A stretch of DNA of 64,000 nucleotides from Eledone cirrhosa (taxonomy: Eukaryota), in contig OZ024758.1 in assembly GCA_964016885.1 (NCBI GenBank), positions 9,548,001 through 9,612,000 of the forward strand. The letters run 5' to 3'. Each line of letters begins with the position of its first letter. The stretch's first letter is position 1. This document shows positions 44,245 to 44,829 of the stretch, in pieces. Below the pieces are notes generated by a model that did no database searches, was not told the DNA's origin, and saw only the letters and a program-made list of their open reading frames with translations. Both the position numbers and the translations under genes were made by a program.

Positions 44245-44407
44245 ATCTGAGTTTTTCGAATACTAATAATAATATTTGATTCGTCATCATTTTATATATA
44301 AAATTATTATTTAACATCCATTTCTTCTACTAGTACTATATATATATATATATATATAAAATAAAGTTAAATAAAAGTCAAATGATTAAAATTTAGCTTC
44401 GTTTATT

Positions 44408-44462
44408 ACTGCTATATATATTTCAGTGACAGCCATCTTTGGCTGTGACCTCTTCAGGCAGT
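44408..44462 (-). ncRNA. Minimal type I hammerhead ribozyme
   Basis: Reverse complement of the 44599-44653 motif. Confidence 0.8.
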
Positions 44463-44598
44463 TTGAATTAGTGTGGTATAGACAAGTACATATGTTGTTT
44501 AGGTGTATAATATTGTCAATACTCTGATATGCCCAGTTCCTTGTTGGGTTGTTAATTCACTGAGGAACTGGAGTCATATCTATACCATACTAATTCAA

Positions 44599-44653
44599 AC
44601 TGCCTGAAGAGGTCACAGCCAAAGATGGCTGTCACTGAAATATATATAGCAGT
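44599..44653 (+). ncRNA. Minimal type I hammerhead ribozyme
   Basis: ACUGC-CUGAAGA-GGUcACAGCCA aaga UGGCUGUcACU-GAAA-UAUAUA-UA-GCAGU, followed by AATAAA. Confidence 0.8.
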
Positions 44654-44799
44654 AATAAACGAAGCTAAATTTTAATCATTTGACTTTTATTTAACTTTAT
44701 TTTACATTACTCCGGAGTAACCAAACCAACCTACGCACTTCGTCGAGAGCTCCAGCCTGCATACTGAGTTGTTGGTATACAACCAACATAAACTCAAAA

Positions 44800-44829
<30 letters not shown>

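Follow-up and report, generated by a model that had tools for sequence, protein, structure and literature searches.

Inverted hammerhead ribozyme units in Eledone cirrhosa: end copies of a Hydra-clade Penelope-like element and the possible templates of its replication

We analysed a window of 64,000 nucleotides (64 kb) from the octopod Eledone cirrhosa (OZ024758.1, positions 9,548,001 to 9,612,000), in which two inverted arms, each with a type I hammerhead motif, lie at 44354-44802. The unit is almost certainly a pair of 5′-truncated 3′-end copies of a Hydra-clade Penelope-like element (PLE), standing back to back in a (TA)n target. Many short copies of this element stop at one fixed place, element position 3805, whereas no such stop is seen once copying has traversed an entire unit. 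We slightly favour, as the best explanation overall, a scheme in which short copies are run-off products and long copies come from a template without ends, most likely an RNA circle excised by hammerhead cleavage.

The inverted unit and its parent element

The arms (44354-44482 and 44579-44707) are 129 nt each, 98% complementary and flanked on both sides by (TA)n tracts, and a motif scan finds a type I hammerhead fold in each, as a reading of the letters alone (the sequence-only reading) had described (Table 1). Both motifs have the conserved core, three helices and open stem I of that type, with a 5-bp stem I, a 26-nt stem II and a 6-nt self-complementary stem III insert. The window holds four type I motifs, against a mean of 0.07 in 100 Markov-shuffled windows; Rfam at its gathering score reports no hammerhead in the window. 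In element coordinates, positions 3805-4027 on the minus strand are joined to 3902-4125 on the plus strand. The 96-nt ‘spacer’ between the arms is the upstream portion of the left copy, which starts exactly at the fixed 5′ stop and has no tail; the right arm carries a tail of 98 nt.

Table 1 Features of the inverted unit and of related copies in the window
Feature	Position	Strand	Basis
Left (TA)n target tract	44337..44357	.	sequence
Left arm, element 3805-4027, from fixed 5′ stop to short 3′ end, 223 nt	44357..44579	-	
Fixed 5′ stop of short copies, ATATG, whose A is element 3805; putative transcription start	44575..44579	-	
Left-arm type I hammerhead; C3 44457, predicted cut after 44413	44408..44462	-	
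Left-arm AATAAA, 6 nt past the cut site	44402..44407	-	mirror of 44654-44659
Right arm, element 3902-4125, 5′-truncated, reaching the long 3′ end	44579..44802	+	
Right-arm type I hammerhead; C3 44604, predicted cut after 44648	44599..44653	+	
Right-arm C.C mismatch; stem III insert	44614/44633; 44641-44646	+	
Right-arm AATAAA, 6 nt past the cut site	44654..44659	+	
Tail of 98 nt bounded by the fixed 3′ ends, starting with the TACTCY motif	44705..44802	+	
Right (TA)n target tract	44802..44831	.	
Family B inverted pair, laid out as in family A; intact hammerhead C3 15603(-)	15417..15941	.	
3′ end of family C, with a hammerhead at C3 45267 cut after 45321	45180..45420	+	
Family D relic, truncated within the catalytic core, no intact ribozyme	53655..53780	+	

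The ribozymes of the two arms lie on opposite strands, and a single transcript therefore never carries both in sense; the functional pair proposed earlier does not stand. The accompanying idea of a switch between cleavage and double-stranded RNA, an ADAR substrate, is unsupported: a read-through transcript does fold arm to arm, as follows from any inversion, but the inversion is a routine insertion product with a junction that differs from copy to copy. The inverted pair is itself an ordinary product of PLE insertion, and its layout is already published.

The right arm matched all 40 scored candidates (the best 40 of 229), and long copies, followed upstream, lead into RT and GIY-YIG frames. 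An RT search gave 38,438 candidates, of which 150 were scored; most among those listed are 90–98% identical. Hammerhead and tail are carried by 11 of the 12 loci fetched around RT matches, and in long copies they follow the stop codon at a distance of about 1.2 kb. In two of the 12 the ORF is complete from Met to stop, with about 890 codons. One natural copy (L121) defines a unit of 4,125 bp, with its stop codon at 2732, C3 at 3927, the cut after 3971 and a 3′ UTR of 1.39 kb; another (L123) repeats the inverted layout of the window unit with arms of 3.6 kb. The short units are 97–99% identical to the end of this coding parent. The unit, held earlier to be non-autonomous, is thus the terminal part of an element that is autonomous and has intact ORFs. 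We rejected an independent non-autonomous element or MITE (haplotypes are common to the long copies and the junction differs per insertion) and a non-LTR retrozyme (copies are dispersed or inverted, with a coding parent at 97–99%).

In both natural copies a single ORF carries the YRDD motif of RT and C-terminal GIY-YIG endonuclease motifs. Pieces of the parent element gave a Pfam GIY-YIG match with an E value of 0.00095, below the curated cut-off, and no Pfam RT match. Protein homologues with E ≤ 0.001 number 43, the only named ones being from Argonauta and Octopus, and an atlas comparison returned unnamed eukaryotic clusters only. Two Hydra-type PLE proteins are filed under unrelated names, as a GATA zinc finger-like protein of Argonauta and a PH domain protein of Octopus bimaculoides (P0022, P0043). 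The translation contains RWK, lacks a conserved GxKF/Y and has DKT in place of DKG; the linker is CxCX5C, CCHH is absent, and CxxC and CxH flank the conserved E and N. A hammerhead near the 3′ end and insertion into (TA)n complete the picture. Because these motifs match every Hydra-clade mark described by Craig et al. (2021, PMC8557442), we assign the element to that clade, an assignment of motif marks to a published description in which the named Hydra proteins are known as printed sequence. Its 4,125 bp exceed the descriptor ‘generally shorter than 3 kb’, which is not strict. Assignment to Neptune was dropped on the linker, CxCX5C, and the absent CCHH.

Hammerhead design across the genome and in related families

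A pattern in which just the core and a TRYRYA stem III insert of 6 nt were fixed matched 105,652 sites in the 3.0-Gb genome, and 144 in a reversed control; these matches, about one motif per 28 kb, count both arms, stem mostly from a small number of abundant, related families and are not independent events. A C and a pyrimidine stand opposite each other at the fourth stem II position in 96,745 of them (91.6%; control, 7). Clusters of motifs were compared through nine representatives with a stem I of at least 4 bp, four of 13 clusters with a shorter stem I being excluded. Stem II positions 1–3 are paired in eight, nine and nine of the nine clusters and positions 5–7 in eight, nine and eight, whereas position 4 is paired in none (C.C in seven, C.U in one and C.A in one). 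In eight of the nine, AATAAA is no more than 6 nt away from the cut. Pair types around position 4 vary between clusters while it is unpaired in all nine, which argues that the mismatch is kept; common descent contributes to its retention. Judged from sequence, it most likely serves as a contact, either with protein or within the tertiary fold. Scan and clusters thus uphold the sequence-only reading on four points: Penelope-type hammerheads, (TA)n targeting, several families and a conserved stem II mismatch. The core is also better conserved than its flanks: in family A, to which the window unit belongs, it differs among copies at 22 of 1,218 positions (1.8%), whereas the leader differs at 5.7% and the tail at 3.8%.

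The first pair of stem II is A-U in 47, G-U in 33 and G-C in seven of 94 distinct sequences, and the 6-nt stem III insert forms 2 bp and a tetraloop. On both features we set aside the minimal hammerhead of Cervera and de la Peña (2014) as a class for these motifs. In the predicted fold of the 3805-4125 leader, stem I pairing is only 0.12–0.14, and the ribozyme is therefore not favoured unaided. Titles and abstracts of the literature yielded no octopod hammerhead of such a design, and the main text of the Octopus vulgaris repeat paper contains none of the words hammerhead, ribozyme and Hydra. The 105,652 motifs, 91.6% of them with the mismatch, are new relative to this literature; Lünse et al. 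(2017) may hold a mismatch variant, and against that paper or repeat databases the novelty may drop. Further hammerhead families were seen at eight loci (L012, L013, L014, L051, L096, L101, L104 and L115), with stem III inserts of 4, 7 or 8 nt and a first-position mismatch; they are nearer to the published Hydra motifs.

Three related families are represented in the window. Hammerheads had been read earlier near 15547, 45260 and 53672. The first two stand, as C3 15603 on the minus strand (family B) and C3 45267 on the plus strand (family C), both with the stem II of 3 bp and a C-pyrimidine mismatch, although one substitution breaks the stem III palindrome of the second. The third does not, being cut off inside the core; the full design of family D is seen only in relatives, in a register about 20 nt further upstream. 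The partner hammerhead of family B, 15736(+), is interrupted by an insertion of about 100 bp. This insertion (15759-15858) is a common short repeat in loop 2 of the plus-strand hammerhead, with a 7-bp duplication. The family C copy has a short inverted piece on its 5′ side and a tail. Family C is tied to a Hydra-type RT/endonuclease ORF with the same CxCX5C linker, a further point against a non-autonomous origin. Around family B, Hydra-type matches adjoin two copies on the opposite strand, with no family B ribozyme downstream. Weak, decayed traces of a Hydra-type RT and endonuclease (tblastn E 4e-4 and 6e-6) occur at 54070-55460, just downstream of the family D relic, and the two may be one old copy.

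Other repeats were noticed in passing. An abundant (TA)n-embedded inverted mini-unit (family F; 15963-16152 and 56254-56431, with a diverged form at 44832-44990) has 3′ ends at two sites separated by about 80 nt, a tail that contains TACTCT...GAGTAC, and a fixed 5′ end at AGTCCAG; the short unit holds no hammerhead core, and its parent was not found. At one locus (L031:6130-6230, minus strand) a 5′ piece of this family is fused directly to the family A RT frame beside a 2.2-kb tandem duplication, possibly through a template switch between families. A 31-bit Rfam tRNA match at 56638-56695 is the head of a tRNA-derived short repeat that follows a (TA)n tract, and minisatellites lie at 46103-47017 (46 bp), 21353-21919 (22 bp) and 31272-31853 (41 bp).

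Copy ends and the second lap

The 3′ ends of family A were sampled with a probe 3′ of the cut, for which the first 100 of 6,422 matches, less three that were merged or lost on removing duplicates, gave 97 segments. All 97 end at 4023-4033 (52 segments) or 4117-4125 (45), two fixed ends 98 nt apart, and inverted pairs have one end of each kind in 34 of 36 cases. By eye from coordinates, at least 52 of the first 100 matches sit in divergent pairs; long-arm pairs are under-sampled owing to short fetch windows. The arms of a pair disagree at 16 of 361 polymorphic-site comparisons (4.4%), compared with 37.8% for random pairs. This agreement indicates one template for both arms, or one arm copied from the other; gene conversion could also account for it. 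Two different RNAs for the two arms were rejected for family A on the same figures, and a few pairs of families B and C, judged by eye, differ between arms at polymorphic sites. TACTCY at the start of the tail is common to families A, B and C, and TACTCY...GAGTRC was matched in five of seven family representatives, with single-sequence folds that disagreed.

The whole has the layout of a PLE insertion, with 5′ truncation, a partial tandem pLTR, an inverted 5′ copy and a tail at one end. In each of the common subfamilies the same haplotypes occur in short and in long copies; the short copies have therefore been remade repeatedly, and we rejected a separate lineage of them. The mini-element of the sequence-only reading, independent and non-autonomous, with inverted arms that toggle it between cleavage on the one hand and dsRNA editing or silencing on the other, would fit the thousands of short copies with fixed ends and the predicted read-through hairpin of about 129 bp (−257 kcal/mol). 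We find it barely credible, given the shared haplotypes, a junction and arm length that differ per insertion, the lack of an exact-match inverted partner for about half of the matches listed, and the description of the same layout as a PLE insertion by-product (PMC8557442).

On their 5′ side the short copies share a single starting point, 122 nt upstream of C3. In a first sample (a probe with 5,029 matches) 22 of 33 segments start in 3797/3799-3814. In a second, from an overlapping region of contig 1, 38 of 97 start there and 35 run further upstream, that is, 38 of the 73 terminal copies reaching 3805 stop; starts printed at 3742 reflect an indel in the reference copy, and we scored them among those running further upstream. 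Genome-wide, a non-templated base precedes A3805 in 1,004 matches, and 1,290 read through. Short copies of family C begin, by eye, at the same TTC/ATATG motif (the slash marks the stop). This motif resembles what we take to be the Pol II initiator consensus. Transcription of PLEs is described as starting inside the pLTR for Penelope and Chlamys-3. On the evidence of these DNA ends, the 3805 stop is probably a transcription start and the short copies run-off cDNAs. A cap-derived G at 3805 was rejected (G in five of 13 cases before 3805, against 11 of 24 at other junctions); in 100 matches listed the base before A3805 is, by eye, G in 31, A in 12 and T in 57. Copy ends do not pile up at the ribozyme cut site, either among the 97 terminal segments or among copies joining tail to 5′ UTR, and a single start at 3972 is an internal deletion. 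Titles and abstracts of the literature mention no pile-up at a start site, which may stand in work beyond their reach. In one natural copy (L121) 3784-3803 is complementary to both stem I flanks (3915-3922 and 3979-3987). RNA extending past 3805 could, on this modelled pairing, fold a three-way junction impossible for the short RNA, and the 3′ ribozyme might thereby behave unlike the leader ribozyme.

The sequence itself might also halt copying at 3805, if RT stalls there, if the CATATG palindrome folds back, or if the endonuclease nicks the AT run of its own element. Many junctions at the motif are indeed fold-backs or carry TA filler, the anole Poseidon enzyme cuts AT-rich DNA in its own pLTR, as passages of PMC11167929 describe, and a cap-derived G is unsupported. 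However, of 97 starts only one falls at another CATATG palindrome, near 3890, and one at the TA run in stem III, which is longer. Neither site is a hotspot, and palindrome fold-back or self-nicking alone is therefore insufficient.

The behaviour of copies that pass through a whole unit is the more telling. Sixty family A copies join the tail directly to the 5′ UTR, and 59 are informative, one (L348) having too little upstream sequence. None of them stops at 3797-3814 in this second lap; 23 run beyond and 36 stop earlier, against 38 stops and 35 run-throughs in terminal copies (Fisher p 1.2e-6, or 1.9e-4 counting two stops at 3793/3795). A plain motif test gives 19 through and one foreign, against 31 and 28. 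Of 36 pairs, a single one combines an arm that ends at the stop with an arm that runs past it, where 5.1 would be expected (permutation p 0.011). The missing second-lap stop speaks against insertion beside an old copy, and against a sequence-driven stop, since the same sequence produces none in 23 passages; we rate such a stop improbable. It also bears on a retrovirus-like strong-stop transfer, in which cDNA made to the RNA 5′ end jumps to the matching 3′ pLTR without any circle. The RNA would be terminally redundant, as that scheme needs, and a fixed short product exists, but after one transfer RT would come upon that 5′ end a second time and should often halt, which zero of 23 do. Transfer on ribozyme-cut RNA would place stops at the cut, where 3961-3980 holds three of 59, not denser than the neighbouring stretch. 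Strong-stop transfer is thus more improbable still. A stop in new cDNAs and none after a full unit fit two templates, one a linear RNA that begins at 3805 and the other an RNA lacking this 5′ end.

A two-template model and its relation to known systems

In the model that we favour, transcription would start at 3805 in the upstream pLTR and give an mRNA whose leader carries the hammerhead, AATAAA and the tail ahead of the ORF; the leader AATAAA must be skipped for the mRNA to reach the ORF. The RT/endonuclease would nick both strands of a (TA)n tract, and cDNA would start inside the RNA at 4027 and 4125, such that one RNA, primed in a single insertion event at two sites 98 nt apart, yields an inverted pair. 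On uncut linear RNA both cDNAs would run to 3805 or less, leaving pieces of up to 223 and 321 nt head to head, as in the window unit, whose left arm is likely such a run-off copy. Alternatively, two hammerheads would cleave, helped by pairing of their self-complementary stem III inserts and probably assisted by the element's protein. The C-pyrimidine mismatch would most likely be a protein or tertiary contact needed for this cleavage-ligation step. Cleavage would free a unit-length RNA, to be ligated into a circle, and priming at the same tail would then copy the ORF and pass one unit, rebuilding the pLTR.

A circle cut out by two hammerheads is the simplest RNA without the 3805 end, and a circular template was proposed earlier by Cervera and de la Peña (2014, PMC4209133). 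From the DNA ends we put the circle, as the template for long copies, at close to an even chance. Work on anole Poseidon reports, in the passages concerned, internal RT starts at the tail ends, cutting and extension of both strands and a protein-assisted hammerhead, but also ribozyme mutants that still insert in vitro and no RNA-seq reads beginning or ending at the cut site (PMC11167929). The main rival to the circle keeps the run-off short copies and draws long and tandem copies from uncut linear read-through or multimeric transcripts begun far upstream, with the hammerhead a passenger or RNA trimmer. That uncut RNA is the main substrate in vitro (PMC11167929) favours it, as do Naiads that amplify without canonical hammerheads (PMC8557442) and long upstream partial copies at two loci (L129, L130), and it too predicts no second-lap stop at 3805. 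Read-through should, however, leave a donor break point or flank, and among 59 upstream ends (ten of them exceeding the 800 nt examined) no junction to one and the same foreign flank recurs. Moreover, clusters whose helices differ have retained both core and mismatch, implying that the ribozyme is under selection. We regard the read-through scheme as unlikely, though a serious contender.

A stricter form of the two-template model, which we hold only tentatively, would let the capped linear mRNA yield strong-stop mini-copies alone and make the hammerhead circle the sole template for full-length, pLTR-rebuilding copies, with the ribozyme as the switch and the mismatch as its protein contact. If true, the ribozyme would be what makes Penelope replication productive, in a lineage that has left some 100,000 motifs in one 3-Gb genome. 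The role of the hammerhead in endonuclease-bearing PLEs is stated as open by Craig et al. (2021, PMC8557442), and regeneration of the pLTR is likewise posed as a question in the literature. A young, abundant family supplies a genome-scale footprint that separates candidate templates, and exact positions can be named for the start (3805), the cut (after 3971) and the RT starts (4027 and 4125).

Among known systems the closest is the Hydra clade as described in PMC8557442, which shares RWK, DKT, the CxCX5C linker without CCHH, CxxC/CxH, GIY-YIG, a 3′ hammerhead and (TA)n targets. Penelope-13_HM has an inverted 5′-truncated copy with a hammerhead on each strand, as here, and an inverted 5′-truncated copy with a one-sided tail is already described for PLEs in that paper. 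Its Hydra elements are ‘generally <3 kb’, whereas ours has 4,125 bp, about 890 aa and a 1.39-kb 3′ UTR. The tail, 98 nt in family A and about 90–95 nt by eye in families B and C, compares with 30–40 bp in PLEs in general; titles and abstracts of the literature gave no 98-nt tail of this kind, with repeat databases outside the comparison. None of the Hydra hammerheads in its File S2 has a stem II of 3 bp and a C-pyrimidine mismatch. A match to a described Penelope family, raised in the sequence-only reading, thus holds for the clade but not for the octopus family Hydra-1_Obim, whose hammerhead and N-terminus differ from those of our parent, making it a different family.

The minimal hammerheads of PLEs (PMC4209133, in the passages concerned) are also of type I, with a short stem I, a long stem II, a palindromic stem III region and an AU-rich 3′ flank, and dual motifs 100–700 bp apart on opposite strands were noted there. 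They have no stem III, whereas ours has 2 bp and a tetraloop; they show a bulge and G10.1-C11.1, in place of a mostly A-U or G-U first pair and a fixed internal mismatch; and they number 2,000–9,000 per genome, against about 105,000 pattern matches here. Anolis Poseidon (Frangieh et al. 2024, PMC11167929) and D. virilis Penelope (Schostak et al. 2008, PMC2377424) share with our element two RT starts bounding the tail, AT-rich targets, extension of both strands, a start site in the pLTR and inverted flanking repeats. They belong to another clade, the anole ribozyme overlaps the ORF start (PMC11167929), and the passages concerned mention neither a 5′ pile-up at the start site nor its absence in tandem copies. 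Metazoan non-LTR retrozymes (PMC7229834; bioRxiv 10.64898/2026.07.22.740005), described as having circular RNA intermediates, are likewise short non-coding units with type I hammerheads tied to PLE ends; they form head-to-tail arrays, whereas our units are dispersed or inverted and 97–99% identical to the end of a coding parent. The number of motifs in E. cirrhosa is, in absolute terms, near that of the axolotl, for which 126,247 type I motifs are reported (PMC7229834).
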